From: a virus
Strand: one strand, 5' to 3'
DNA: 64,000 bases
IMG/VR virus record: IMGVR_UViG_3300045988_120248
Span: 45,063-109,062 of that record
Shown here in pieces: positions 10,913 through 64,000 of this stretch. Each line of letters starts with the position of its first letter. The first letter of the stretch is position 1. Below the pieces are notes generated by a model that did not search any database, was not told where the DNA came from, and saw only the letters and a program-made list of their open reading frames with translations. The position numbers were made by a program, and so were the translations under genes.

Positions 10913-11011
10913 GCAATGAAACACTGGGGATAGGGTAGCTCCTGAAAAGCGGTTCCCTTACCGCCTTCCCCTGTTTTTCAATAAGGGAATTACTGAAGGG
11001 AGTAATTGAAC

Positions 11012-12054: not shown

Positions 12055-12136
12055 GACCTGCGCCGAAAGAGCGGTGCAGAAGAGCCGAAGAGGGCTACCG
12101 ACACAGTGAAATGTGCCGGTAGCCCTCTTTTATTTT
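12055..12136 (+). promoter_or_regulatory. conserved hairpin + intrinsic terminator element, copy A
   Basis: 7-bp stem 12058-12064/12073-12079 with loop GAAAGAGC, linker AAGAGCCGAAGAGGGCT, then a 15-bp terminator stem and TTTTATTTT. Homologous to 26733-26812 and 41305-41394. Confidence 0.55.
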
Positions 12137-12156
12137 GCAAGGAAGGAGACAACGAA

Positions 12157-37400: not shown

Positions 37401-38301
37401 AAAGGCGATGAGAGTTTTTGGAATGCCGCAGTTTTCTGAAATTACGTCCATTAAGGCGGGGGGCACACAGTCTACGAACTATATTTTCCTGAGTGATGGA
37501 CATATCAGCTTTGAACAGATGGAAACGTTCAACGATGATTGGAGTTACCATCCCTCCGACCTACCAAGCCAATTCTATGCGGACTTTACATCCGACCTCA
37601 ATGGCGATACTTATGGAGGAACCGTTTTTTCAGAGCTGTATATTTATCGGTCGGCATTGGGGAACGGCACACTTCAAAGAGTCGCAAAAATAAGCGCGGA
37701 AGGTGGAAACAGAATCGTTGATATACGTGCGGCAAACGGCATACCATACACTTATTACGCGTTTGGCGTGTCTGACGAAGAGACCACGGATGCAATCATA
37801 AGCAGACAGATAACTGCGTGCATTTGGGATTGGGCGGTGATTTCCTGCAAAGCAGACAGCGACGGAGTATTCCACGCGCAAAAGATATTCGCCTTCGGGA
37901 AAAATTTCTCCAGTGGAGACATCAGCAACAATAATGCACCACAGATTCTCCAAAATTTCACAAGATACCCGACGATTCAGCCACCGCCCTTCAACTACAA
38001 GAGTGGTACGCTGACGAGTTTGATCGGAACAATCTCAAACGGTTCGTATTCAGATACGCTTGCCGGAAGGGATGACATTTTTGAATTGTCCACGACGAGC
38101 AATACAATGTTCCTGAAAAGTCGGAAAGGCGACTTCATAAAGATCAGGATCAGCGGCGCGATAGAATGCACCACCATGGACAATTCTCCGACGCAGGCTC
38201 AGAACATCAAATTACCATGGGTGGAGATTGGTGATGTGTCGGATGCGCAAGTTATATGCACTATGGACGATGAAGCATGGCCTTATCAGGATGCGCCGTA
38301 A
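34498..38301 (+). CDS. large distal tail protein with Asp-box (BNR) beta-propeller region
   Basis: 1267 aa directly after the tape measure; about 10 S-x-D-x-G-x-(T/S)-W type repeats (YSTDGISWTT, YSSDLGETWTS, YSKDGITWEE ...). Confidence 0.6.
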   Translation: MLYQPTNIYPSMTGALGNGVIDANNSLPVSWQVNGNSPMTAYQITIYANNTASTQLFSTGKLTNGCPFYGVNYAGEPQFFSHTITAEQLSTARIVNGLDYKIVIQQWWNDTDSVTQSSASVFQARTAPSIQIGAIPTPLATRSFTFSASYYQKENEPLNWARWEISSVENGEHSIIKDTGKIYGVSELLLPYDGFLTGRTYAVRLSIQTESGVDVTTGWEDFNVNYTVTPITGELSVCQANKAHGIAITAPQINNIPATNTEGVYVNGSNMVIPQIVSSEVTWKSKNGEPLSIKPPFDLLWDGDGYSAGDVLTISGTASSYGFQPSEAFTGGSVGAYGNEYWCCYGGGKYVAIFYDGTVRYSTDFVTWNSSKIQLANNTGWCGVAYGNNTYVAISYTTKCVAYSTDAASWTVTTNVPSQFMSLIFAAGKFVAGGEGLIAYSTDGISWTTANAPVSSTEEVTAIAYGGGNPYASKYIASTTSGAIYYSTNGTEWVKGNDTLPFWTGSICFGAATVGGYREGFVAVFNRDDTIAVSADGVNWETKGIHAPGNLYSIHASWNQNDGFKIVAAGDGCVIYSSDLGETWTSLNNEPFADSSVYVFEGNGDAFVIAARTDGVYSTAMASQVAQPTDMVINFSSDISIRTRTSVLPSEIQWKDCVYGDGVYVAVASYSETAQTTAFAATSGTLTEWTSSPLPSGYWKSISYGNGQVIAVGTSVEDSKPIAAYSLDKGTSWTVVSIACENPNCIRFLNGNFYIAGNGIYRSPNWVDWEKCTLEQYQNYPLMSLAYGNGTYVCVTTYESYYSYDGISWSKSQTYKDWWRCVAFGNGLFIAGGIGGTTSYSKDGITWEETPGTRPGDISWNCLCYGANRFVALSGYFVYMSIDGTDWDLIQNIPANGACCFGNGTFVFFGDDTTLSETYGRTANVFARLNGGNVAKVPIDAPKKIRMSTYGELRSFGLATSVDGISTEKAMRVFGMPQFSEITSIKAGGTQSTNYIFLSDGHISFEQMETFNDDWSYHPSDLPSQFYADFTSDLNGDTYGGTVFSELYIYRSALGNGTLQRVAKISAEGGNRIVDIRAANGIPYTYYAFGVSDEETTDAIISRQITACIWDWAVISCKADSDGVFHAQKIFAFGKNFSSGDISNNNAPQILQNFTRYPTIQPPPFNYKSGTLTSLIGTISNGSYSDTLAGRDDIFELSTTSNTMFLKSRKGDFIKIRISGAIECTTMDNSPTQAQNIKLPWVEIGDVSDAQVICTMDDEAWPYQDAP

Positions 38302-39657
38302 AACCCCTGCCTTTAGGCATGGGGATATAAGGCGCTCCAGCTGATGTCAAAAACAATGCGTTCGACCGGGGGAAGCATTGGAAATATGACATAATGTAGC
38401 ATGAAAGGCGGTGATTTCATGGAATATAGCTATAAGTTTCGCATCTACCCTACAAAGGAACAGACATTGCAGATTCAGCGTACCTTTGGATGCTGCCGTT
38501 TCATCTACAACCACTATCTTGCGGCACGCATTGAGTCCTATGAGGCGAACCGAACGACGTTCGGCTATAACGCCTGTTCCGCTGATATGACGGTTTTGAA
38601 AAAGTCACTTCCATGGCTCACCGAAGTAGACTCCACTGCGCTTCAATCCTCGCTGAAAGACTTGGATACCGCCTATCAGAACTTCTTTCGTCGAGTGAAA
38701 TCTGGCGAAAAGCCGGGATTCCCACGATTCAAAAGCAAACGTGACCACCGCAAAAGCTACAAGAGCAAAGCCGTGGGCGCGAACATCAAGGTCTTGGACG
38801 GCGCGGTTCAACTTCCGAAACTCGGCAAAGTCAAGTGCCGCATCAGCCGAAAGGTTGAGGGAAGAATCCTCTCCGCGACGGTATCGCAAAACCCAAGCGG
38901 CAAATATTTCGTATCACTCTGCTGCACTGACGTTGAAATCGAGCCATTGCCGAAGACCGGTGCTGTGATTGGCGTTGATATGGGACTGAAAGCGTTCGCA
39001 ATCACGTCCGAAGGGACGGAATACCAGAACCCGCGCTATTTAGCCAAGAACCAGAAGAAACTTGCCAGACTGCAACGGCAGCTCTCCCGAAAATCAAAGG
39101 GGAGCAACCGGCGCGAAAAAGCGAGGATTCAGGTGGCACGGCTGCATGAGCATATCGCAAACCAGCGCAGCGACATGATGCACAAACTGTCAACGCAGCT
39201 CATCCGCGAGAACGATGCGATCTGCATCGAGGACTTAGCACCGCAGAACATGGTCAAGAACCATCACCTTGCGAAGTCCATCAGCGACGCATCTTGGGGT
39301 GAGTTTCGACGGCAGTTAGAATACAAAGCTACGTGGTATGGGAAGAAAGTAATACCAATAGACCGGTTCTTCCCATCCAGTCAGCTATGCTCCTGCTGCG
39401 GGTATCGGAATACCGACACGAAGAATCTGGCGGTGCGGGATTGGACGTGTCCTGAATGTGGGACGCACCATGACCGGGACATCAACGCAGCAAAAAATAT
39501 TCTAAGCGAGGGATTGCGACTACTGGCCTAGCCCAAACATACGGTAGGGCGGGACACGTCCGAACCTATACGCTCGGGGAGACTGTGTAAGACGCCGCTA
39601 CGGCGCGACGGTCGTAGAAGCGAGAATCCCCCGGCTTTAGCCGTGGGGATTGTCAAT
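38302..39657 (+). mobile_element. IS200/IS605-family element carrying tnpB only (no tnpA)
   Basis: Subterminal hairpins of the same design at both ends: LE cccc-tgcc-ttta-ggca-t-gggg (38304-38325), RE cccc-cggc-ttta-gccg-t-gggg (39628-39649). RE ends GTCAAT as in the other copies. The left boundary is approximate. Confidence 0.75.
38419..39531 (+). CDS. tnpB: TnpB RNA-guided endonuclease (IS1341/OrfB type)
   Basis: [13 protein letters not shown]-terminus, RuvC motifs GVDMGLK / IEDL / [12 protein letters not shown] and CSCCG...CPECG zinc finger. Start trimmed to ATG 38419. Confidence 0.85.
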
Positions 39658-44977: not shown

Positions 44978-45157
44978 TCAGTTTGCGCAGTCTTCCTCCG
45001 AAAGCAAGACGGTATAGAATCGGTCTTCTGGAAGCTTTAACACCGCTGCGTCCACGCTTTCTGCCTCGACAGTAATGAACTCAGCACCTTTTTCCCAGTA
45101 CATCACATGGAATGTATAGCGCTTGTTGATTACGTTCGTGCGGAGTTTTCCGTCCAT
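44978..45157 (-). CDS. hypothetical small protein
   Basis: ORF 44978..45178 trimmed to ATG 45157 after GGAAGGAG. Confidence 0.45.
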   Translation of the reverse strand: MDGKLRTNVINKRYTFHVMYWEKGAEFITVEAESVDAAVLKLPEDRFYTVLLSEEDCAN

Positions 45158-46096: not shown

Positions 46097-47185
46097 TTAT
46101 ATACCCCTCATTTCCCGCACATTCTGTGCCACGATTTTTACTGCGTCATCAATGATTTTGATATCTCGTTCGAGGTTCAGCCCGTAGTTATTGCCCATAT
46201 CATTTGCATTCGGGTCGAGTTTGTAATCGAAGCTGAACCGGATGGCCGACCGGGCGCGTTCCTCAGAATACCCCGAAGCGAGAAGCACACGGGATGGCGC
46301 GTTATCACCGCTGGAACACGCTGCGCCGGATGAAACCATCAGACCGTCAGCCGAAAGCCGCAGGACGAGCGCATGGTTCTCAATTCCGGGGAAAGAAATG
46401 TTTGCGATATATGGAGACTGTCCAAACTGATGGCCAAAGCATTCCAAACCGTTTAGCTGCGCATCTGGTAGTTCATTCATAATACCATCGATCAAGTGGT
46501 TATGCAACACCCTCGTTGTTTCTGCGAACCAGTCCAGATGATTTGTGCGGAATTCCAATGCGACAACAAACGCAGCGGCAAGCGGAGCGGATGGCGTTGC
46601 AAAATGGAAGTTCTCTGTGACTTCATCCGGATTTCGTGCAATTAACACACCGATTCCAATCGGAGCACCGAATTTATGACCCGCGCCGCATATGAAATCT
46701 ATTCCGCTTTCACGGAAATTGATTTCCTGTTTCCCCATGGCTGCGGTGCAGTCGGAGAATGTCAAGTCATACCCCGCAAAAGCGCTTTTCAAATCATAAA
46801 TTTCACCGGTTTCGTTGTTTGTGTGGATATGAGATATACCGCGCAGTTTGTTTCCAATACGGCTTATTGGCATCATGCGGTCTGTAATGCTTGTCACTGC
46901 TGCGTGCTCCGCACTGCTCGCAGAAATACCCTTGCATTTGTCATTCATAATCGTGAGCGCAATCCTGCACGCTTCCGTTGCGGACGAAACGAAGAAAACT
47001 TGGTCCGGCTCACAGCCCAAGCACAGCGCTACGCCCTTGCGGGATGCTTCAAATGCCTTTCTGGTAGCTTGCCCAAAGGAATGTATAGAATTCGGGTTCC
47101 CCCATACCGGCACCTGCGCCCCTACGAATGTTCCCATCGCGCCCTTAAGCGGGGGAGAAGTAGCCGCGTAATCCAAGTAAATCAT
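46097..47185 (-). CDS. class V aminotransferase / NifS-IscS-like cysteine desulfurase
   Basis: YLDYAATSP, GNPNSIHSFG, PLP-lysine motif GAGHKFGAPIGIGVL, active-site loop SSGAACSSG. Confidence 0.8.
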   Translation of the reverse strand: MIYLDYAATSPPLKGAMGTFVGAQVPVWGNPNSIHSFGQATRKAFEASRKGVALCLGCEPDQVFFVSSATEACRIALTIMNDKCKGISASSAEHAAVTSITDRMMPISRIGNKLRGISHIHTNNETGEIYDLKSAFAGYDLTFSDCTAAMGKQEINFRESGIDFICGAGHKFGAPIGIGVLIARNPDEVTENFHFATPSAPLAAAFVVALEFRTNHLDWFAETTRVLHNHLIDGIMNELPDAQLNGLECFGHQFGQSPYIANISFPGIENHALVLRLSADGLMVSSGAACSSGDNAPSRVLLASGYSEERARSAIRFSFDYKLDPNANDMGNNYGLNLERDIKIIDDAVKIVAQNVREMRGI

Positions 47186-47727
47186 GCGCCCAACTCAACC
47201 TCCTTCGGCCAACGCGGCAACGCAGCGGCACAGATTTTTTCGTAAATTTCTTTCTGTGCAAGCAGCGTATCGCGTTCCTTCTGAATCACACGATATGCGT
47301 CTTCTAATCCGAATGGCTCGTTGAGTGGAACACGGATCTTTTCTGACTCTGACGCTTGAGAGGCAGTTACAATGCCAGTAGGGGGGGCGTTAAGCCCCAA
47401 GGAGACGATAACCGCTTGGTCAACAAGTTTCATTTCATCGGATGTCAACGTGCAATAGTAGTTCTCCAGACGATCCTTATCGACCGTGTAGATTGCTTCG
47501 CAAAGCGCGGTCGACTGCTTGCCCATCGTATCAATGGAAACGTGCGTGGGCATTGGCTTTTTCTCGGCAGTCGTGAGATAAACAATCTCTACAGTGCCGG
47601 AATATGTATTGTTTTTTTCATTACTGACAATAATCGCGGGGCGATTCTTTTTTTGCTCGGAACCGACAGCAGCATAGTCCTGACGAACCCAGAAAATGTC
47701 GCCCCGATGGATTCTTATATCCTGCAT
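47182..47727 (-). CDS. PemK/MazF-fold toxin-like protein with about 65-aa C-terminal extension
   Basis: RGDIFWV...GSEQKKNRPAIIVSN...VEIVYLTT N-terminal domain; stop overlaps the next ATG (ATGA). Confidence 0.6.
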   Translation of the reverse strand: MQDIRIHRGDIFWVRQDYAAVGSEQKKNRPAIIVSNEKNNTYSGTVEIVYLTTAEKKPMPTHVSIDTMGKQSTALCEAIYTVDKDRLENYYCTLTSDEMKLVDQAVIVSLGLNAPPTGIVTASQASESEKIRVPLNEPFGLEDAYRVIQKERDTLLAQKEIYEKICAAALPRWPKEVELGA

Positions 47728-47784
47728 AGAAGTGTATCCTTTCTGTATTTTTCAATATGTATAGGGGCTGTGAAGCCCCATGAA

Positions 47785-48060
47785 TTACTTTGCAACTGCG
47801 TTTTTCAGAATGCTGCTCGGCGAGAATTTGACCGAAAAACGGGCTGGAACCTTGATGTTTTCACCGGTCTTCGGGTTCCGCGCATCTCTGGCCTTCTGGT
47901 ACTTCGCAGCAAACTTGCCGAAGCCAGCGATAGAGACATCTTCATGCGAAATGAGGGATTCTCCAATCGCTTCAAACACGGCATCGATGGCTTCCTGGCT
48001 GGCGGTCTTCGGCATATTAGTCTTGCTGGCAACTGCCTGAACGAGTTCTTCTTTGTTCAT
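47785..48060 (-). CDS. hup: HU-type DNA-binding protein
   Basis: MNKEELV...GFGKF...RNPKTGE.I.VPA.....F typical HU/IHF signature, 91 aa. Confidence 0.85.
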   Translation of the reverse strand: MNKEELVQAVASKTNMPKTASQEAIDAVFEAIGESLISHEDVSIAGFGKFAAKYQKARDARNPKTGENIKVPARFSVKFSPSSILKNAVAK

Positions 48061-48087
48061 GTGTAATCCTCCTTTCTCAAGAGTAAA

Positions 48088-48163
48088 TGGTGGGCCGTCT
48101 CGGAGTCGAACCGAGATTTTACCAGTTATGAGCTGGTCGCTCTAGCCTTTGAGATAACGGCCC
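48088..48163 (-). tRNA. tRNA-Met or Ile2 (anticodon CAT), CCA encoded
   Basis: Acceptor GGGCCGT/ACGGCCC, anticodon arm ACCAG-CTCATAA-CTGGT, T arm CTCGG-TTCGACT-CCGAG. Lacks initiator features; one weak D-stem pair. Confidence 0.85.
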
Positions 48164-48947
48164 ATCTATAACCGGCTTGACGTACCGGCCGTGAGGTCTT
48201 GCGCGCAGACCAACGGCAAATTCAGGCGGTTGCACACCGGCGCTTGTGTGTCAACAGTCCTTAAAGCGTCCCCAAAGGTGCTGCCTAGTTTGGCGGATTT
48301 CAGTTCGCCCAAAGCGTTACGAAATTGTGCGGATTCATCCGGTTCGACCACTAGTGAGTCTTTCCCGGCAAGCTGAACGGAACTTTCCAAAATGGACTTG
48401 TGCCGTCTCTACGAAGGTCTATATCCGCTTGACCTTTACCTTTTCGGACCGAAACGCGCAAACGGCTTTTACTGCGCTGTCGGCACAAGTGTTACCTTGC
48501 CCCGGTGGGTTTTCACCACTATATTCTGTTAGTTTCGGTAGCCCACGCATCAAGCGTAGGGGATATGATGGCTGTTCATCAAACTCCATTTAACTCAGTC
48601 AAGCACCAACCTCCAACTTATTGGCCAATGCTTATCTGCTGCACCATCATTTTTTGAGCGATTAGGTACAAGCAATCGCTCGAACTTGGCTTCTTGGGTT
48701 CTCCCCGTCGTTGGACGGGCGGATTTGCCATCTCCGGAAAGGCTTCCGCATTGCCATTGCAGCGTAGCCATTATCCCGCTTTCGACCCATATAGCTGCAT
48801 TTTGCCTCGTTCTCCTTGGACGCTGTGGGTCAGCGTCTTTAGCCGGTGGCGCTACGCTCCACGATCACGCTATTGCGTGCGTGAATGGATAGCTGTATGA
48901 TTCCCACCATGTTAATTTGTCGCGCGGAGAACCCCAACGGGCGGCTA
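48164..48947 (-). ncRNA. candidate large structured noncoding RNA between two tRNAs
   Basis: 784 nt with no credible ORF on either strand; many local helices; abuts tRNA-Met and tRNA-Gln without spacer. Family untested. Confidence 0.4.
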
Positions 48948-49024
48948 TGGCAGGGGTAGCAGGATTTGAACCTACGAATATGGGAGTCAAAGTCCCATGC
49001 CTTAGACCGCTTGGCGATACCCCT
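48948..49024 (-). tRNA. tRNA-Gln (anticodon TTG), CCA encoded
   Basis: AGGGGTA/TACCCCT acceptor, TGGGA-CTTTGAC-TCCCA anticodon arm, GTAGG-TTCAAAT-CCTGC T arm; resembles bacterial tRNA-Gln. Confidence 0.9.
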
Positions 49025-49178
49025 TTGTTGCCGGCCTTTCCCGGCTGTCAGAGTGCTTACATTCCCGAAGAACTCGTCCGTGGTATCGGCTATATCAACC
49101 CGACGACACCGCTGCCAGATGCGGAGGTTTCATTCCAACTACGGTTTAACGAGTAACAACCTCGTATGTTGGTGGGCA

Positions 49179-49208
49179 TGGTGGATGCGGCGAGGATTTG
49201 AACCCCGC
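49179..49208 (-). pseudogene. tRNA-like 3' module (T arm + acceptor 3' strand + ACCA) without an adjacent 5' half
   Basis: GCGGGG-TTCAAAT-CCTCGC then CGCATCC-A-CCA; no complementary 5' strand within 90 nt. A matching GGATGTG lies at 50587-50593 beyond the tnpB element. Confidence 0.45.
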
Positions 49209-49246
49209 ACGGTGCAGGCAGTATGCGACGAGCTTTGTTCCCGTCC

Positions 49247-49420
49247 GAGGTGGCTGCTTCAACCCCATTGACACTTCCCGTGGAAAAACAGGGGATTCTC
49301 GGTTCAGCGACCGTTGCGCCGTAGTTGCGTCTTACATGGTCTCCACGAGCGTATAGGTTCGGGCGTGTCCCGCCCTACCGTATGTTTAGGCTAGGCCAGT
49401 AGGCGCATTCCTTCGTGCAA
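49247..49420 (-). ncRNA. TnpB omega RNA scaffold plus guide, copy 2
   Basis: Same conserved block after the tnpB stop, ending GTCAAT at 49267; the RE hairpin is partly degenerate; guide would be 49247-49266. Confidence 0.5.
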
Positions 49421-50601
49421 AATGTTCTTCGCGGCATTTACATCCCGGTCATGGTGTGTCCCACATTCAGGGCACGTCCATTCCCGTACCGCCAGATTCC
49501 TTGTTCCGGTATTCCGATACCCGCAGCAGGAACATAGCTGGCTGGACGGGAAGAACCGGTCTATCGCTATGACTTTCTTTCCATACCACGCGGCCTTGTA
49601 CTCTAACTGCCGTCTGAACTCGCCCCATGCTGCGTCACTGATGGACTTCGCAAGGTGATGGTTCTTGACCATGTTCCTCGGTGCTAAGTCTTCGATACAG
49701 ATCACATCATTTTCCCGGATGAGCTGCGTTGACAGCTTGTGCATTATGTCCCCACGCTGGTTTGCGATATGCTCATTCAGCCGTGCCACCTGAATCCTTG
49801 CTTTTTCGCGCCGGTTGCTCCCCTTTGATTTTCGGGAGAGCTGCCGTTGCAATCGGGCAAGTTTCTTCTGGTTCTTGGCTAGATAACGTGGATTTGGATA
49901 TTCTATTCCATCGGACGTGATTGCAAACGCTTTCAATCCCATATCAACGCCGATCACAGCGCCGGTCTTCGGCAGCGGCTCAATCTCCACGTCGGTACAG
50001 CAGAGCGATACGAAGTATTTTCCACTAGGATTTTTGGATATCGTGGCAGACAGAATTCGGCCTTTGACTTCTTTTGAAACCCGACATTTGACACGCCCCA
50101 GTTTCGGAAGCTGGACGGCATCTTCAAAAACTTTTATACCGCCTTTTGATTTATAACTCTGTCTATGCTCACGTTTGCTCTTAAATCGCGGAAATCCGGG
50201 TGGCATTCCATTCTTGACGCGGCGAAAAAAATTCTGATATGCGTCATCCAAATCCTTCAGCGATGATTGGAGCGCTGTAGAATCGGCCACTCGAAGCCAC
50301 GGAAGAAACTTTTTTAGTTGCGTCATATCCGCGGAACATTCACAATAGTTCATCATCTTGGAATCTTGTTCATATGCGTTTTGCCTCATTCTGAGATAGT
50401 AATTCCAAATGAACCGACAGCATCCGAATATCTGTTGAATCAGACAGGTTTGGGAATACGAAGGATATATTCGGAATTTATAACTGTACTCCATTATCTC
50501 TCCTTGCATATTTTTTATGATTTCCATGGAAACGTGTGTCACGCTTTCCTGCACCGCATACCCTTGCTGCCTTTTCCATTCGGCCACACATCCGTATGTT
50601 T
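49267..50601 (-). mobile_element. tnpB-only IS200/IS605-type element, copy 2 (rearranged left end)
   Basis: The RE matches copies 1 and 3. The region upstream of tnpB is unrelated to copy 1 LE but has its own bulged hairpin (50528-50549). The left boundary is uncertain. Confidence 0.55.
49391..50494 (-). CDS. tnpB: TnpB RNA-guided endonuclease, copy 2
   Basis: Starts [12 protein letters not shown] after AAGGAGAG. The C-terminal about 200 aa are nearly identical to copy 1 and the N-terminal part is diverged. RuvC and zinc-finger motifs intact. Confidence 0.85.
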
Positions 50602-50877
50602 CTATTCGTTGTTGCTTTTGGGCACTAGGTACATTGCGTAAGAAATGCTTTCGCTGAACCTCACCGGATACTTTTCCATGAGATATACCATGAGTTCGTC
50701 CAAATCCAGCGCGTGTACCGAACCTTCTAGTTCTGGATATTTCCCAATGATGCCGTGCTCCCCAATATCCCAAGGATCGCGCCATCCAATTTCGTAGCAC
50801 TGTTTCAGAATATCTGACAGATCGTATTTATCCAACTCCGCTGCAGCTTGCTTTGCTTCCAAACAATAGTCAAACAC
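50602..50877 (-). CDS. hypothetical protein (91 aa)
   Basis: ORF track; GTG start after GAAAGGGTGG. Confidence 0.45.
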
Positions 50878-51075
50878 CGTCGTACCACCCTTTCCTTTTT
50901 GGCCGTCTTCTCGCTTAGATTGTCACATCACGGGCATCCTCAACAGAACCATTACGTTGTGGGCTTTACGTTCTCTCGAACCTCAATCCACCTACCGTGC
51001 AGTTTTCAGCGGGCATTTTCGTTCTCTGTGTGGCTCGACGGTCGCGCACACATCATCCGGGAGCGACCCGGCAAC

Positions 51076-51162
51076 TGGCGGCAGATGGAGGTGTCGAACC
51101 CCACGGCTTTCACCGCGCACTGTTTTCAAGACAGGCTCCGAGGCCGCTCGAATTCATCTGCC
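51076..51162 (-). tRNA. tRNA-Ser (anticodon TGA), class II, CCA encoded
   Basis: GGCAGAT/ATCTGCC acceptor, loop CTTGAAA, long variable arm, T loop TTCGACA. Confidence 0.85.
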
Positions 51163-51166
51163 GTAT

Positions 51167-51243
51167 TGGCTGGAGGTTTTGCACCATGCACGATCAGGAG
51201 TCGAACCTGACCATTTGGGGACTCGGACCCCGCTGCACCTCCA
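51167..51243 (-). other. 77-nt tRNA-sized, non-canonical cloverleaf-like element ending GCCA
   Basis: 7-bp closing stem TGGAGGT/ACCTCCA + G + CCA. Three internal hairpins: GGGG-TCCGAGT-CCCC, TCAGG-TTCGACT-CCTGA, TGCA-TGG-TGCA. The T-loop-like arm is in the wrong position for a tRNA. 4 nt from tRNA-Ser. Confidence 0.35.
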
Positions 51244-51494
51244 AGGATAACCGTTACCCTATATTGCGCGGAATTGGTTTCGTCACCGCACTATGAGCCT
51301 TTAACCAAGCCTGCTCTTTGTCTGTTTCCCGAATTATTGAACAGCAGTCAACGTTGCGTGTTACGCGCGATATTCACCAACGATTTTTGCCCGCGCTGTT
51401 GTGTTTGGCGTACCAGCGCAACGAGGACTTTCATGGGTTCCGATTTTCTACACAGCGGCACGCTTGTGCGAACTAGCCAAACTCGGATGGTATC

Positions 51495-51818
51495 TCAACA
51501 CCTTTCGGTGATGAAATCTTTCAATACTTTTTCTGCAAATTCAATCTGCGGCCGGATGTGTTCATAGTGGCCTGAATACAAGATTGCTTTGATACAGCAG
51601 ACGCTATTGATCGCATCCTTCACGTCCTTGTCATTGCTGCCAAGCACGGCATAGACGGGAAGATTGTCTTTCTGAATTACATCACGATACCATGATTTGA
51701 ACCCCGTGCAGATGTCCGTTTGATGGGAATAGCCGGATTCAAACCCTGCGCTATATATCTCAAATAGGAACGATTTGATCTGCGCGTCGCTGAAATCGAC
51801 TGTCCTGACATCGTTCAT
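51495..51818 (-). CDS. hypothetical protein
   Basis: ORF 51495..51869 trimmed to ATG 51818 (GGAGG upstream, ATGA overlap with the previous stop). Confidence 0.5.
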   Translation of the reverse strand: MNDVRTVDFSDAQIKSFLFEIYSAGFESGYSHQTDICTGFKSWYRDVIQKDNLPVYAVLGSNDKDVKDAINSVCCIKAILYSGHYEHIRPQIEFAEKVLKDFITERC

Positions 51819-52138
51819 GCCCCTGCCTCCGTGTACCTGCCCTTGCACGCTTGCCAACATAATTGGCATGATTCAAAAATGCAAGGGAGCCCTACGAATT
51901 CCGGTAGAGAGCATCGTTCGTTCATCAAATCCGGGTACAGAGCCTTCATTGCGAAAAGCTTCCTTGCTTCGTCAGGACCGACAAACATCGGCTTTCCTTC
52001 CGGCGCGTAGTGCCGAATCTGAACCGGAATCTCATCCCGCGTGTCGTAGTAGTTGACAGAAACTGGGCGAGATGCACTGTCTACGACAACGTAGACGTTT
52101 TTTGTGCCGTTGGTTAAGTAACGAATATCAAGACTCAT
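51815..52138 (-). CDS. hypothetical protein
   Basis: ORF track; ATGA overlap with the upstream gene. Confidence 0.5.
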   Translation of the reverse strand: MSLDIRYLTNGTKNVYVVVDSASRPVSVNYYDTRDEIPVQIRHYAPEGKPMFVGPDEARKLFAMKALYPDLMNERCSLPEFVGLPCIFESCQLCWQACKGRYTEAGA

Positions 52139-52392
52139 GTTTTACCTCCATTTGAGTCAAATTTGTTTCTGAGCTTTTCCAGCGCTTGGTTGAACTCAAA
52201 CTTCATAGCAGCATAATTTCGGTCTTCAAGTTTTGGAACGTAGACTTTTTCTCCGCAACTTATACAACAGGGCCTATTCTCAATATAGCCGAAACGCACC
52301 CCACAAACATTCACTCTCACGCGCTGAAGCTTTATCAAATAATCTGTCGTCTTACCGCACCTGATGCAGTACGCAGTATTGTTTTCGTCCAT
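52135..52392 (-). CDS. hypothetical zinc-ribbon protein
   Basis: CIRCG ... CCISCG motifs. Confidence 0.5.
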   Translation of the reverse strand: MDENNTAYCIRCGKTTDYLIKLQRVRVNVCGVRFGYIENRPCCISCGEKVYVPKLEDRNYAAMKFEFNQALEKLRNKFDSNGGKT

Positions 52393-52762
52393 CGTTTTTA
52401 CTCACTTCCCACCCATTTTTCACAGTCATCCACTCTTGGCCCCAGAGCCGCCATTACTCAACGCCTAGACGCGGCATTGCGCCGTTGGTCTGCGTCGCCA
52501 CACCAGTTTTTCTTCCATCTTTCACGCCTCACAGCGAGCCGTATGGAAGCCAAGAGGGGATTGACCACGGAACTTTTCAGCCCTGCGCCGGCGCATCGGT
52601 CGCATCCGTTTCTTTTTACACACATTAAGCCGGGGCCAGCTAATTAGATTCGCAATCTGTCGTATTCGCGCTACCTACAGATTGAGCGGATGGCTGGATA
52701 TATCGTTTCACCAAAGCCTTTGGAACCTCAAAACTTTCCCTGGGTCCGCCACAATACCCATG

Positions 52763-52836
52763 TGGAGTGCGTGAGGAGAATCGAACTCCCACCATCAGAT
52801 TGGAGGTCTGATGTTCTGCCGTTAAACTACACGCAC
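52763..52836 (-). tRNA. tRNA-Gly(TCC)-like with C at position 33
   Basis: Good cloverleaf (GTGCGTG/CACGCAC, D stem GTTT/GAAC, T arm GGGAG-TTCGATT-CTCCT, U73, CCA). The anticodon loop is CCTCCAA instead of CTTCCAA. Confidence 0.7.
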
Positions 52837-53030
52837 ATGAATACTCCCTGTTTTACTCCGGTGCGGGAGCGATCTTCCCGAAAACCCATAGCTGGTCTTC
52901 CCAGACCAGAGCGCCGGAATCTCCAAAATGTTCCGGCGAGCGCCTGCGCTTACTTGGGCGACGCTTTTCCTTATCAGAAAGGAGGCCATATGCCGTGCCG
53001 CAGAGAAATCGAAAAAAACTGCGGCATTGT

Positions 53031-53095
53031 GGCGAGAATCGGATTCGAACCGATGCAGCGTGGTTTTGTAGCCATTCCGCGCACCTGCTCCTGCC
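53031..53095 (-). other. truncated tRNA-like element next to the integrase gene (possible att core)
   Basis: ATCGG-TTCGAAT-CCGAT T arm + TCTCGCC-A; imperfect 5' partner GGCAGGA; only 65 nt, no D/anticodon arms, no CCA. Confidence 0.35.
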
Positions 53096-53183
53096 GTACA
53101 CCGGGTTTGAAAGAAACCCGGATGGTTTTAATTTTCTTGGTTTTTCTCGCTGGCCTACTGGCTGTTTGTTTTCTTGGTTTTGC

Positions 53184-54272
53184 TTACGCTATCTCCGGCT
53201 GTGGAACCTGCTTCAACCGGAGGCTTCCGAAAAAATTGTCTCCCGATGCCTCCAACCGGTCGATATTTCTACGCGCCTGACGCTCCTTTTCTTCTTGCAC
53301 GACTTTGGTCATTCGTCTGTTCTTGCGGCTTGTCAGTTTGCCGGAATAGATCTGCGTGGTTGAAACTGATTCATGTCCGAGTTTTGCTTGCAATTCTTCA
53401 TACTTCATACCGCTGTTCAGGTCAAGCCGTGCGCCGACGTGCCGCAGATCGTGAGTACGAATCATGTCGACCCCGGTAACTACTTTCACATGCCGACGAA
53501 CGACGTCTGACAGCCATTGCCGTGTCCCTGCGTGCCATTCTTCTCCCTTGTTGTCACCCTTGAATTTGAACGTCGCTTCTGTCCCAAAAAGTGGGTCACT
53601 GTTACCGGCAGCTGCGGGGCGAATGCCACTGTTTAGATACATGCGAACAGCTGTCTGCGCCAGAATAGGGAAGTCCACTGGACGGAATTTGTCTCCCTTG
53701 CCATGTTCAACGGTCAACTCCGAATTTTCCCAGTCAAGATCGTTCGGCGTAAGCGCCAGGAGCTCGCTGTTCCTGATTTCTGTAGTCAGGAGCAAAATCA
53801 CGATGGAGTAGTTTCTCGGCCAAAATTCAGGGCGCTTGAGATTTGCCGGCGGATTATTTCTCCAGAGCAGTAGGACTTGTTCGTCGGTCAGCAGCTGGTC
53901 GTATGGGCGTTTCTCAAGTTTTCTTGTGTCTGGAATCAGAAGCGGCGCAACCGGATTACTCTCGTACCATCGGCTCTCGCCGAGCTGTTCGGATGATGCG
54001 AATTTGTATAACAGAGAAAGAGCCTTCAAGTATTGCTTAATTGTGTTTGGCTTTTTTCCGTCCCTCCGCAGCTGGTCTCTCCAAGCCTGAATATCGATAA
54101 AACTTTCTTCTCGCCCGTCCCATCTCTTATTGTCCAGCATGAATCCGGAGAAAAGCCGGAATATCTGCTCCGCGTTCTTGACCGTTATCTCAGAACGACC
54201 GATAGCTCGAAGGTTTTCTTCATATGCCACCATCGCAGACTGGAATTTTTCACAGGCATTTGGAAAACCCAT
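53184..54272 (-). CDS. int: tyrosine recombinase / phage integrase
   Basis: C-terminal catalytic signature TEIRNSEL ... HDLRH ... LGHESVSTTQIY. Confidence 0.85.
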   Translation of the reverse strand: MGFPNACEKFQSAMVAYEENLRAIGRSEITVKNAEQIFRLFSGFMLDNKRWDGREESFIDIQAWRDQLRRDGKKPNTIKQYLKALSLLYKFASSEQLGESRWYESNPVAPLLIPDTRKLEKRPYDQLLTDEQVLLLWRNNPPANLKRPEFWPRNYSIVILLLTTEIRNSELLALTPNDLDWENSELTVEHGKGDKFRPVDFPILAQTAVRMYLNSGIRPAAAGNSDPLFGTEATFKFKGDNKGEEWHAGTRQWLSDVVRRHVKVVTGVDMIRTHDLRHVGARLDLNSGMKYEELQAKLGHESVSTTQIYSGKLTSRKNRRMTKVVQEEKERQARRNIDRLEASGDNFFGSLRLKQVPQPEIA

Positions 54273-63366: not shown

Positions 63367-63545
63367 TTTCGTGACCTCGCGGAAATGTTGACACTCCCCA
63401 CGTCTAAAGCCGGGGGATTCTCGGTTCAGCGACCGTTGCGCCGTAGTGGCGTCTTACATAGTCTCCACGAGCGTATAGGTTCGGGCGTGTCCCGCCCTAC
63501 CGTATGTTTTGGCTAGGCCAGTAGTCGCAAGCCCTCACTTAGAAG
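63367..63545 (-). ncRNA. TnpB omega RNA scaffold plus guide, copy 3
   Basis: Conserved block after the tnpB stop ending GTCAAC at 63387; guide would be 63367-63386. Confidence 0.55.
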
Positions 63546-64000
63546 GTTTTTCGCGGCGTTGATGTCCCGATCATGGTGTGTCCCGCATTCAGGGCACGTC
63601 CACTCCCGTACCGCCAGATTCCTTGTTCCGGTATTCCGATACCCGCAACAGGAACATAGCTGACTGGATGGGAAGAACCGGTCAATCTGTATGACTTTCT
63701 TCCCGTACCACGCGGCCTTGTACTCCAGCTGCCGCCTGAACTCGCCCCACGAGGCGTCGCTGATAGACTTCGCAAGGCGATGGTTCTTGACCATGTTCTT
63801 CGGTGCTAAGTCTTCGATGCAAATCACATCATTTTCTCGAATGAGCTGCGTTGACAGTTTGTGCATCATGTCGCTGCGCTGGTTTGTGATATTCTCATGC
63901 AGCCGCGCAACCTGAACCCTCGCTTTCTCACGCCGGTTGCTCCCCTTTGATTTTCGGGAGAGCTGCCGTTGCAGTCTGGCAAGTTTCTTCTGGTTCTTGG
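63387..64000 (-). mobile_element. tnpB-only IS200/IS605-type element, copy 3 (runs off the window)
   Basis: RE hairpin tcccc-cggc-ttta-gacg-t-gggga nearly identical to copy 1. Confidence 0.7.
63513..64000 (-). CDS. tnpB: TnpB, C-terminal part (5' end outside the window)
   Basis: The frame stays open to the window edge (...[51 protein letters not shown]...); near-identical to copies 1 and 2. Confidence 0.85.

Follow-up and report, generated by a model that had tools for sequence, protein, structure and literature searches.

In the 64,000-nucleotide stretch analysed here (hereafter the window; positions 45,063 to 109,062 of IMG/VR virus record IMGVR_UViG_3300045988_120248), one tRNA-like gene lies in two parts on the - strand, 50593..50534 and 49267..49179, separated by an insert of 1266 nt (50533..49268) that carries the gene tnpB (Table 1). 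The insert has the features of a TnpB-only IS200/IS605 element, derived from that family and not an autonomous member of it. All sequence elements listed in the initial annotation of this locus were recovered at their coordinates, namely GGATGTG (followed in the window by TG-GCC-GAATGGAAAA-GGC), the D arm, a 9-nt match, the T arm with CGCATCC-A-CCA, and tnpB. The T stem, taken as 5 bp, proved to be 6 bp long (GCGGGG/CCYCGC).

Table 1. Positions of the interrupted tRNA-like gene, the inserted element and the neighbouring genes in the window (ORF, open reading frame)
Feature	Position	Strand	Remarks
tRNA-Gly	52836..52763	-	followed by three small ORFs and a non-coding stretch
ORF, 91 aa	50877..50602	-	without Pfam match
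5' part of tRNA-like gene, gene positions 1-60	50534..50593	-	base-for-base alignment with the intact gene in 75 loci; match of covariance model R1
Acceptor 5' strand GGATGTG	50593..50587	-	then UG; 8 nt past the TAG of ORF 50877..50602
D arm GCC-GAAUGGAAAA-GGC	50584..50569	-	then linker
Helix-b 5' strand CGGTGCAGG	50556..50548	-	in 5' part
Non-canonical left junction, 39 nt (GTTTCCATGGAAATCATAAAAAATATGCAAGGAGAGATA)	50495..50533	-	between gene and tnpB ATG
tnpB, 367 aa, predicted ISDra2-type RNA-guided RuvC nuclease	50494..49391	-	Pfam and structure matches
Putative omega-RNA scaffold (non-coding part) and right end	49268..49390 (123 nt)	-	ends ..CCCCUGUUUUUCCACGGGAAGUGUCAA at 49268
Putative guide-encoding flank TGGGGTTGAAGCAGCCACCT	49248..49267	-	directly 3' of right end; first 16-20 nt of the gene's 3' part
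3' part of tRNA-like gene, gene positions 71-159	49179..49267	-	aligns with the intact gene; R1 match 71.8 bits
Hairpin 72-91	49266..49247	-	in 3' part
Hairpin GACGGG-AACAAAG-CUCGUC	49245..49227	-	in 3' part
Helix-b 3' strand CCTGCACCG	49218..49210	-	in 3' part
6-bp T arm	49208..49190	-	T stem covaries
Acceptor 3' strand CGCATCC	49189..49183	-	then A (49182) and CCA (49181..49179)
tRNA-Gln	49024..48948	-	downstream of the 3' end of the tRNA-like gene
tRNA-Met	48163..48088	-	downstream of tRNA-Gln
Class-V aminotransferase (NifS/cysteine-desulfurase-like), MazF/PemK-like toxin with C-terminal extension, HU-like protein	46097-48060	-	directly downstream of the tRNA cluster

Empty sites were searched for by exact-pattern scans of IMG/VR and of metagenomes, and in loci anchored on the adjoining aminotransferase gene (loci are designated by L and a number). 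In IMG/VR, the scan with the 3' end of the gene yielded 3 loci with the 5' part joined directly to the 3' part, and that with the D-arm/linker block yielded 20 loci, uninterrupted in 20/20. The metagenome scan added 35 human-gut contigs with the continuous gene, and the aminotransferase-anchored loci supplied further ones. Altogether the intact gene was found in 75 loci with 29 distinct sequences, all of them gut-phage relatives, and it spans 158-160 nt from GGATGCG to ..CGCATCC-A-CCA. The limits of the conserved block coincide exactly with G1 and the terminal CCA, though the flanking contexts differ both up- and downstream. Because the halves are contiguous in relatives, with exact borders and covarying stems, the observation rises above chance, and comparison with these alleles confirmed the two window parts as halves of one real gene. 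The proposal that the tnpB cassette interrupts a tRNA-like gene, to be seen whole in related phages at their empty sites, thus held.

The intact alleles read ..GGCACAC-TCAAACCTAT|TGGGGTTGAAGCAGCC.., that is, CCTAT|TGGGGTTGAAGCAGCC with TGGGG as the start of the second segment, and CTAT lies immediately 5' of the sequence that meets the right end in the occupied allele. The window flank from 49267 is TGGGGTTGAAGCAGCC.., identical to the intact-allele sequence after CCTAT. Read in this way, CTAT plus TGGGGTTGAAGCAGCC is arranged as in an IS200/IS605 insertion and like the target-adjacent motif (TAM) and target of a TnpB. Six occupied loci share the same site and the same two junctions (the window, L021 with the identical L218, L022, L083, L238 and the partial L251), and their alleles read ..G(G/A)CACAC|(G/A)TTTCCATGGAAATC..ATG (tnpB) .. 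GTGTCAA|TGGGG... They miss ten gene bases, TCAAACCTAT, TAM included, together with the entire canonical left end.

The borders of the element were established by comparison with 80 related copies from IMG/VR. The right end ..GGGGAGTGTCAA| (..GTGTCAA) is identical in more than 50 copies at unrelated sites, and it was placed at 49268 because the flanks of the copies differ past GTGTCAA and because of the empty site. Nine independent insertion contexts gave TTAT/TTAC/CTAT as the TAM. In addition, the window itself contains two seamless empty sites for related copies: ..CCCTCTTTTAT|TTTGCAAGG.. at ~12120-12147 (+), with TTTAT|TTTGCAAGG, for an L026-type copy, and the junction 51282|51281 (-), GGTGAC|GAAACCAATT, for an L012/L034-type copy. 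These sites prove the borders, the lack of a target duplication and the position of the TAM. The second one implies a TGAC motif, so that subfamilies whose proteins are 77-83% identical have different TAMs. When the same test was applied to the window copy, the right junction fitted (CCTAT|TGGGG in the intact allele), and the left junction was found without a TAM and with 10 bases gone.

The left end of the canonical relatives, TTAT|CAGAATGTGCCGTAAAACCCCTGCCTTTAGGCATGGGG.., comprises ~130 nt; after TTAT/TTAC/CTAT these copies have CAGAATGTGCCGTAAAA and then the hairpin CCCCTGCCTTTAGGCATGGGG, which is absent from the window copy. The 39-nt left segment of the occupied alleles holds a 12-nt palindrome and an AGGAG ribosome-binding site, and BLAST found it in occupied alleles only, apart from one fortuitous match within the MazF-like gene. 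In the simplest history, an ordinary insertion at CTAT would have been followed by a deletion that crossed the left border. A tnpB-less mini-element was observed at L271 4700-4988, where TTAC|CACAAGTGGCGTAAAGCCCCTTGCTTTAGC runs straight into the omega-RNA/right-end region of the window lineage; this locus shows the right end to have had a canonical left end at one time. The mini-element abuts an orphan 3' part of the tRNA-like gene that equals the consensus, and the 5' part is absent within the 15-kb locus.

The TnpB protein matched the Pfam families OrfB_IS605 (2.7e-26), Cas12f1-like TNB (3.2e-28) and HTH_OrfB, and the ISDra2 TnpB structures 8BF8/8EXA with E = 4e-102. Its RuvC D/E/D motifs align as GVDMG (GVDxG), CIEDL (IxxEDL) and HDRD, and both CxxC zinc-finger pairs are kept. 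As judged by a dN/dS of 0.10-0.13 at dS 0.22-0.30 against three sister copies, tnpB was shown to be intact and under purifying selection. TnpB is common in phages, with 436 matching INPHARED records, the best from Firmicutes phages at 53% identity. Some related copies have a Y1 TnpA upstream of tnpB, which identifies the family as IS200/IS605; tblastn with the family TnpA found nothing within the 64-kb window.

Downstream of the tnpB stop, the 80 copies share ..GAGAAUCCCC-hairpin-GGGGAGUGUCAA, beyond which their flanks diverge. Among 16 copies, 15/26 predicted pairs of this region show compensatory changes, and such a conserved, covarying structure is what would be expected of an omega-RNA scaffold. 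By analogy with ISDra2, the 5' end of the omega RNA probably lies inside tnpB. In this family the guide of the omega RNA derives from the flank just past the right end. The flank TGGGGTTGAAGCAGCCACCT would accordingly be transcribed as the guide in the window, where it has no other match. A promoter and terminator scan gave nothing useful, and since no sigma-70-like promoter was found in the 39-nt left segment, the cassette is probably expressed by transcription that reads through from the cluster.

The RNA encoded by the intact gene has the consensus GGAUGCG UG GCC GAAUGGAAAA GGC A GCAAGGGUAUGC GGUGCAGG AAAGCGCGGCACACUCAAACCUAU, followed by UGGGGUUGAAGYAGCYACCUC G GACGGG AAYAAAG CUCGUC GCAUACUG YCUGCACC AU and, at the 3' end, by GCGGGG UUCAAAU CCCCGC CGCAUCC A CCA. 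Its tRNA-like traits are a 7-bp acceptor stem, U8, G9, a D arm of class-II type (3-bp stem, 10-nt loop with GG, i.e. G18G19), a T arm with a 6-bp stem and a UUCAAAU loop, a discriminator A and an encoded CCA. Across the 29 distinct sequences 99.8% of the cells in the pairing model are paired, and 0/500 shuffles reached the observed values. Two stems show compensatory changes, the D stem with C11-G24 to A-U in L267 and the T stem with G-C to U-A in L283. The D and T arms are separated by ~104 nt, without a canonical anticodon arm. The 9-nt match, which the initial annotation read as a long helix just 5' of the T arm, is indeed present as helix b (39-46 with 120-127), but in most alleles this helix comprises 8 bp and has G-U or G-C as the pair at one end, and it competes with helix a (32-42 with 108-118). 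The two helices are mutually exclusive unless they form a pseudoknot; a few variants favour helix b slightly, in a family whose mean identity of 97% is too uniform to decide. Candidate hairpins in the internal region are 72-75/88-91, supported by a G73A change that pairs with U90, and GACGGG-AAYAAAG-CUCGUC.

We therefore file the 159-nt gene, on its sequence, as an undescribed irregular tRNA-like RNA that is presumably non-decoding. Several known classes were tried and rejected. A canonical tRNA has part of its features here (the acceptor stem, the D arm with G18G19, a T arm with UUCRANY, the discriminator and CCA), but the T stem has 6 and not 5 bp, there is no cloverleaf anticodon arm, and ARAGORN and RF00005 were negative. 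The sole hairpin with a 7-nt loop reads AAUAAAG/AACAAAG, so that position 33 is A and not U33. The intact allele gave no ARAGORN call under any option (intron, tmRNA, relaxed score). A hidden canonical tRNA was likewise rejected, as 30/3913 internal deletions of the intact gene gave ARAGORN calls with 9 different anticodons. In the window, where an in-silico deletion of the element had been suggested as a check, 1/5950 joins was called, a weak tRNA-Arg across the junction, and no consistent tRNA emerged.

For a transfer-messenger RNA (tmRNA), the 3:70 pair is A3-U70 instead of G3-U70, pseudoknots are missing and neither ARAGORN nor Rfam gave a tmRNA match; of 25 distinct sequences compared, 5-7 have lost the stop of the candidate tag frame, GCG..UGA. 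An allo-tRNA or tRNA-Sec-like RNA, with its acceptor branch of 12-13 bp and its long variable arm, would share the 13-bp branch, which here is however 7/6 and not 8/4, 9/3 or 8/5, with a 3-bp D stem and a 10-nt loop in place of a 6-bp stem and a 4-nt loop. A Leu-tRNA with an insert between 26 and 27 would fit the loop UAA or CAA (both Leu anticodons) and A73, and was dropped for its A33, its 6-bp stems, its poor variable arm and the missing ARAGORN call. Rfam 15 has no family for the intact allele at E <= 10, the best hit, tRNA-Sec, having 16.8 bits where the threshold is 47 bits; on the window and the region at E <= 5 it returned, besides noise, only the three ordinary tRNAs and a tRNA-Sec-like neighbour that scored below its threshold. 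A scan of GTDB (one genome per species) with a 19-base core pattern gave three random coding matches and no homologue. A structure-aware gapped pattern in IMG/VR returned mostly neighbouring tRNA pairs, and the acceptor-pairing filter left only unrelated intron-like tRNAs. In distant sister phages (L222 5129-5233, L224 5130-5234, L225 5095-5199), whose aminotransferase is 57% identical, the same cluster contains a 105-nt tRNA-like RNA that keeps the 7-bp acceptor stem, the 3-bp D stem, the 6-bp T stem and ACCA, with a different and shorter internal region.

Taken together, these results make it probable that a TnpB-only IS200/IS605 element inserted 3' of CTAT in a gut-phage tRNA cluster, within an irregular tRNA-like gene that does not decode, and that it spreads or persists independently of TnpA. 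In this mechanism, tnpB and the omega RNA would be read through from the tRNA-cluster transcript, and the TnpB ribonucleoprotein would take up the guide UGGGGUUGAAGCAGCC and cut the intact alleles (CCTAT plus target) of co-infecting relatives. Recombinational repair from the occupied allele could then copy the cassette in, or the rival genome would be lost. The occupied allele itself would be immune, because GTCAA and not a TAM precedes its copy of the target. Presumably the cassette can no longer be moved by TnpA through 'peel and paste' transposition, since the left-end hairpin and the TAM are lost, the right-end hairpin is weakened and the window has no TnpA. The interrupted tRNA-like gene is most likely inactivated. 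In bacteria, homing and cleavage at vacant sites by IS605-family TnpB, with guide RNAs encoded by the transposon, are established (PMC10055086, PMC10690162).

The distribution of the alleles bears on this mechanism. Two upstream and two downstream contexts were found around occupied alleles, and each of their four combinations occurs, which implies that recombination has taken place around the cassette. Among the variable columns of the gene, 7/22 fall in the 21-column (~20-nt) target stretch (hypergeometric P = 0.012), where position 8 shows four-state variation, and on this alignment the insertion sits in the most variable loop region of the RNA. Several observations nevertheless weigh against guided, TnpA-independent spread. 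The occupied alleles are confined to two upstream contexts, with 0/41 in the commonest one, and such a distribution would fit vertical descent with recombination as well as active homing. Similarly, variability of the target would be consistent with escape from cleavage and equally with an unconstrained hairpin loop. CTAT differs in its first position from the commoner TTAT/TTAC, and a sister subfamily uses TGAC, which makes the TAM preference of the window TnpB tentative. Furthermore, the left junction is unlike a TnpA product, no allele with a canonical left end was found in this gene, and the terminal omega-RNA/right-end hairpin is degenerate in the lineage of the window.

Two explanations are hardly credible. 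The first half of the gene could be a chance 7-mer upstream of a leftover tRNA 3' fragment, e.g. a phage attachment-site remnant, or the whole resemblance could be fortuitous: a 7/7 acceptor partner alone (G-U allowed) is expected 0.37 times in 1.5 kb, which is not significant and far from the chance of a few percent put forward initially, and neither ARAGORN nor Rfam calls a tRNA at the site. The intact alleles refute this, as the parts are contiguous in 75 related loci with exact borders and covarying stems. No better is the case for an IStron, an IS200/IS605 or IS607 element combined with a self-splicing group I intron, by which its insertion would be phenotypically silent. Such elements bearing TnpB do exist (PMC10690162), and the cassette does lie inside a transcribed RNA gene, but no group I or group II intron or other Rfam family was detected in or around the insert (47900-53200, gathering score and E <= 5), and the 39 nt upstream of the tnpB ATG are too short for a ribozyme. 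Removal of the cassette would not restore an intact RNA, because ten gene bases are missing. Hence the intron-like reading first given to this locus is not supported; a family-standard right end 3' of CTAT, without a ribozyme and with 10 bases lost, argues for a transposon insertion.

Two other readings differ in what the insertion would do. One regards the cassette as a domesticated weapon: the phage would keep an immobile TnpB to destroy competitors with the intact allele during co-infection, and copying would be incidental. It draws on the same molecular evidence as guided spread, together with the loss of both TnpA-recognition hairpins under strong purifying selection on tnpB, polymorphism of the intact alleles that is concentrated beside the TAM and at positions 8, 12 and 16 of the target, as for escape variants, and the precedent of the endonuclease SegB in the T4 tRNA cluster, which confers preferential inheritance in co-infection (PMC2330249). 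We consider it unlikely: just ~8% of the alleles are occupied, the target variability may be neutral, and sequence data do not separate it from homing. The other reading, which seems more doubtful still, holds that the gene is split but functional. Its transcript would be processed, and parts 1-60 and ~91-159 would be held together by the 7-bp acceptor stem and the 8-9-bp helix b. This would yield a tRNA-like RNA of two pieces that could accommodate the cassette, placed as it is in a dispensable hypervariable hairpin, which agrees with its position in the most variable part of the RNA. In its favour, the halves have 3-5 differences from the nearest intact allele (median 1 among intact alleles) despite a tnpB dS of 0.2-0.3, and the window halves belong to the best-conserved segments of the region, being 95-96% identical to intact relatives where neighbouring DNA is 74-92%. 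Next to helix b, the C38/A128 mismatch became C-G in the window and U-A in L021, independently, and left-end and right-end sequences are able to pair. However, U38 with A128 also occurs in the intact L244, and pairing between ends is possible in any IS200/IS605 element, both ends being similar palindromes. No ribozyme or splicing signal was found, the first 16-20 nt of the 3' part would stay as guide, and L022 and L083 have ACAA in place of ACCA with one stem pair lost. Since the orphan 3' half of L271 equals the consensus without a 5' half within 15 kb, conservation of the halves is not evidence of function. The fullest version of this idea is slightly less probable again: the 159-nt RNA would be a new class of phage tRNA-like RNA (13-bp 7/6 acceptor-T helix, class-II D arm, A73-CCA, and a 100-nt domain replacing the anticodon arm), maybe chargeable without an anticodon, which in occupied phages survives as two pieces joined by acceptor stem and helix b after trimming of the omega RNA and mRNA, so that the transposon acts intron-like without splicing and its guide drives it into intact alleles.

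Compared with known systems, the inserted element is most readily related to ISDra2-type OMEGA systems. It shares with them the protein family, the catalytic motifs, the omega scaffold at the tnpB 3' end and right end, the right-flank guide, and a site of insertion 3' of a short T/A-rich motif, with no duplication of the target; the empty allele equals TAM plus target. It differs in that the window has no TnpA, the left-end hairpin and TAM are deleted and the right-end hairpin is degenerate, and in that it lies in a phage RNA gene and is known here from sequence. Free-standing homing endonucleases of T4 tRNA clusters such as SegB (PMC2330249) resemble it as nuclease genes in a phage tRNA cluster that are absent from close relatives, whose version of the cluster holds the target; by analogy, the window cassette would be expected to bias inheritance in co-infection. 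SegB is however a protein-guided GIY-YIG enzyme between tRNA genes, whereas the window nuclease is predicted to be RNA-guided and interrupts a gene. IStrons are alike in placing a TnpB-bearing element in a transcribed gene with the omega RNA at the 3' border, and unlike in that the window insert has no detectable ribozyme or room for one and its excision cannot restore the gene.

Among irregular tRNA-like RNAs, the stable RNAs C and D of phage T4 offer one comparison. Two-piece tmRNA and split tRNA genes are permuted or separate genes with dedicated processing. A likeness to them, an RNA made of two matured pieces held by acceptor and internal helices, would hold only if the gene were split but functional; here the orphan half is equally conserved. 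The tRNA-like domain of tmRNA is similar in that 2 nt separate the end of a long helix from the T arm and in that the anticodon arm is missing, but the window RNA lacks G3-U70 and a conserved tag reading frame. Mukai et al. (PMC5389517) described allo-tRNAs and the (8/4) tRNA-Ser of phages, as well as polycistronic irregular tRNAs that neighbour toxin-antitoxin genes and transposons. The window gene shares with these the acceptor stem, the D arm with GG, the UUCAAAU T arm, the discriminator and the encoded CCA, and it lies in a phage tRNA cluster near an (8/4) tRNA-Ser-like gene and a MazF-like gene. It differs in its acceptor/T arrangement, which is 7/6 (13 bp) and not 7/5, 8/4, 9/3 or 8/5, and in the ~104 nt between its D and T arms.

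No prior description of TnpB in a phage tRNA-like gene was found in the literature. Insertion next to a TAM is textbook behaviour; less ordinary are the apparent natural pairing of occupied and empty alleles in phages with a TnpA-independent cassette, and the target, a seemingly undescribed tRNA-like RNA. Natural occupied and empty alleles exist for a phage RNA-guided nuclease cassette that has lost the requirements of TnpA-based movement and whose guide matches the relatives' version of the interrupted gene. Such an arrangement would be expected if TnpB on its own were able to work in phage populations as a device for homing or exclusion. If so, such elements would resemble the classical homing endonucleases of phage tRNA clusters. 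The 29 natural target variants, some with TAM-proximal changes, provide a ready test set; among the changes are G78T/C/A, C82T/A, C86T and CCTAT to CATAT. Moreover, an unannotated, sharply delimited tRNA-like RNA and several other irregular tRNA-like genes were exposed in common human-gut phages.

Other copies of tnpB were observed in the window. A second complete copy at 38286-39656 (+) (coding sequence 38419..39528, 82% amino-acid identity) has the canonical left-end hairpin at 38304, CTTAT before its left end and the right end ..GGGGATTGTCAA|TGAGAAAGG. The third, at 63388-63998 (-), is cut by the window end, is 91% identical over residues 207-367 and has a canonical right end. When L030, L034 and L079, which carry one tnpB subfamily, were compared with window 51017-51290, the left flank was common and the right flanks differed. 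This pattern implies deletions in the tRNA cluster of up to several hundred bases that start exactly at the right end; the one in L079 takes out a 77-nt RNA, an (8/4) tRNA and a tRNA-Pro.

The surroundings of the tRNA-like gene vary between phages. Aminotransferase identity is just 57-77% while their tRNA-like genes match at 96-100%. The 91-aa ORF separates a conserved non-coding leader (window 51000..50893) from the tRNA-like gene (compare L003 and L018); it occurs in some phages only, and in most relatives the leader directly abuts the gene, ..GACGGYCAAAAT|GGATGCG. At 51076-51162 (-) lies a tRNA of 87 nt. Its acceptor stem has 8 bp, its D stem 6 bp with a loop of 4 nt, and its T stem 4-5 bp; the anticodon loop is CUUGAAA (UGA, Ser), and a variable arm is present. 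It was uncalled by ARAGORN, its relatives score 39 bits against the 47-bit Rfam tRNA-Sec threshold, and it matches the (8/4) tRNA-Ser of phages in Mukai et al. (PMC5389517). An RNA-like element of 77 nt at 51167-51243 (-) has a 7-bp closing stem UGGAGGU/ACCUCCA followed by G-CCA, and encloses three hairpins, of which GGGG-UCCGAGU-CCCC and GAUCAGG-UUCGACU-CCUGAUC are T-arm-like and the third is small; its folding z-score is -2.5, and it is kept in the relatives L012 and L225 and has no family match. An int-alpA RNA of Rfam was detected at 10923-10987 (+) above the gathering score (52 vs 35.8 bits). Finally, phage tRNA genes from unrelated metagenomes (L151 1579-1719, L169 4792-4954 (-), L288 5179-5295) are normal in acceptor stem, D arm and T arm and carry 47-80 extra nt in the anticodon loop that are intron-like and under the size of a group I intron.

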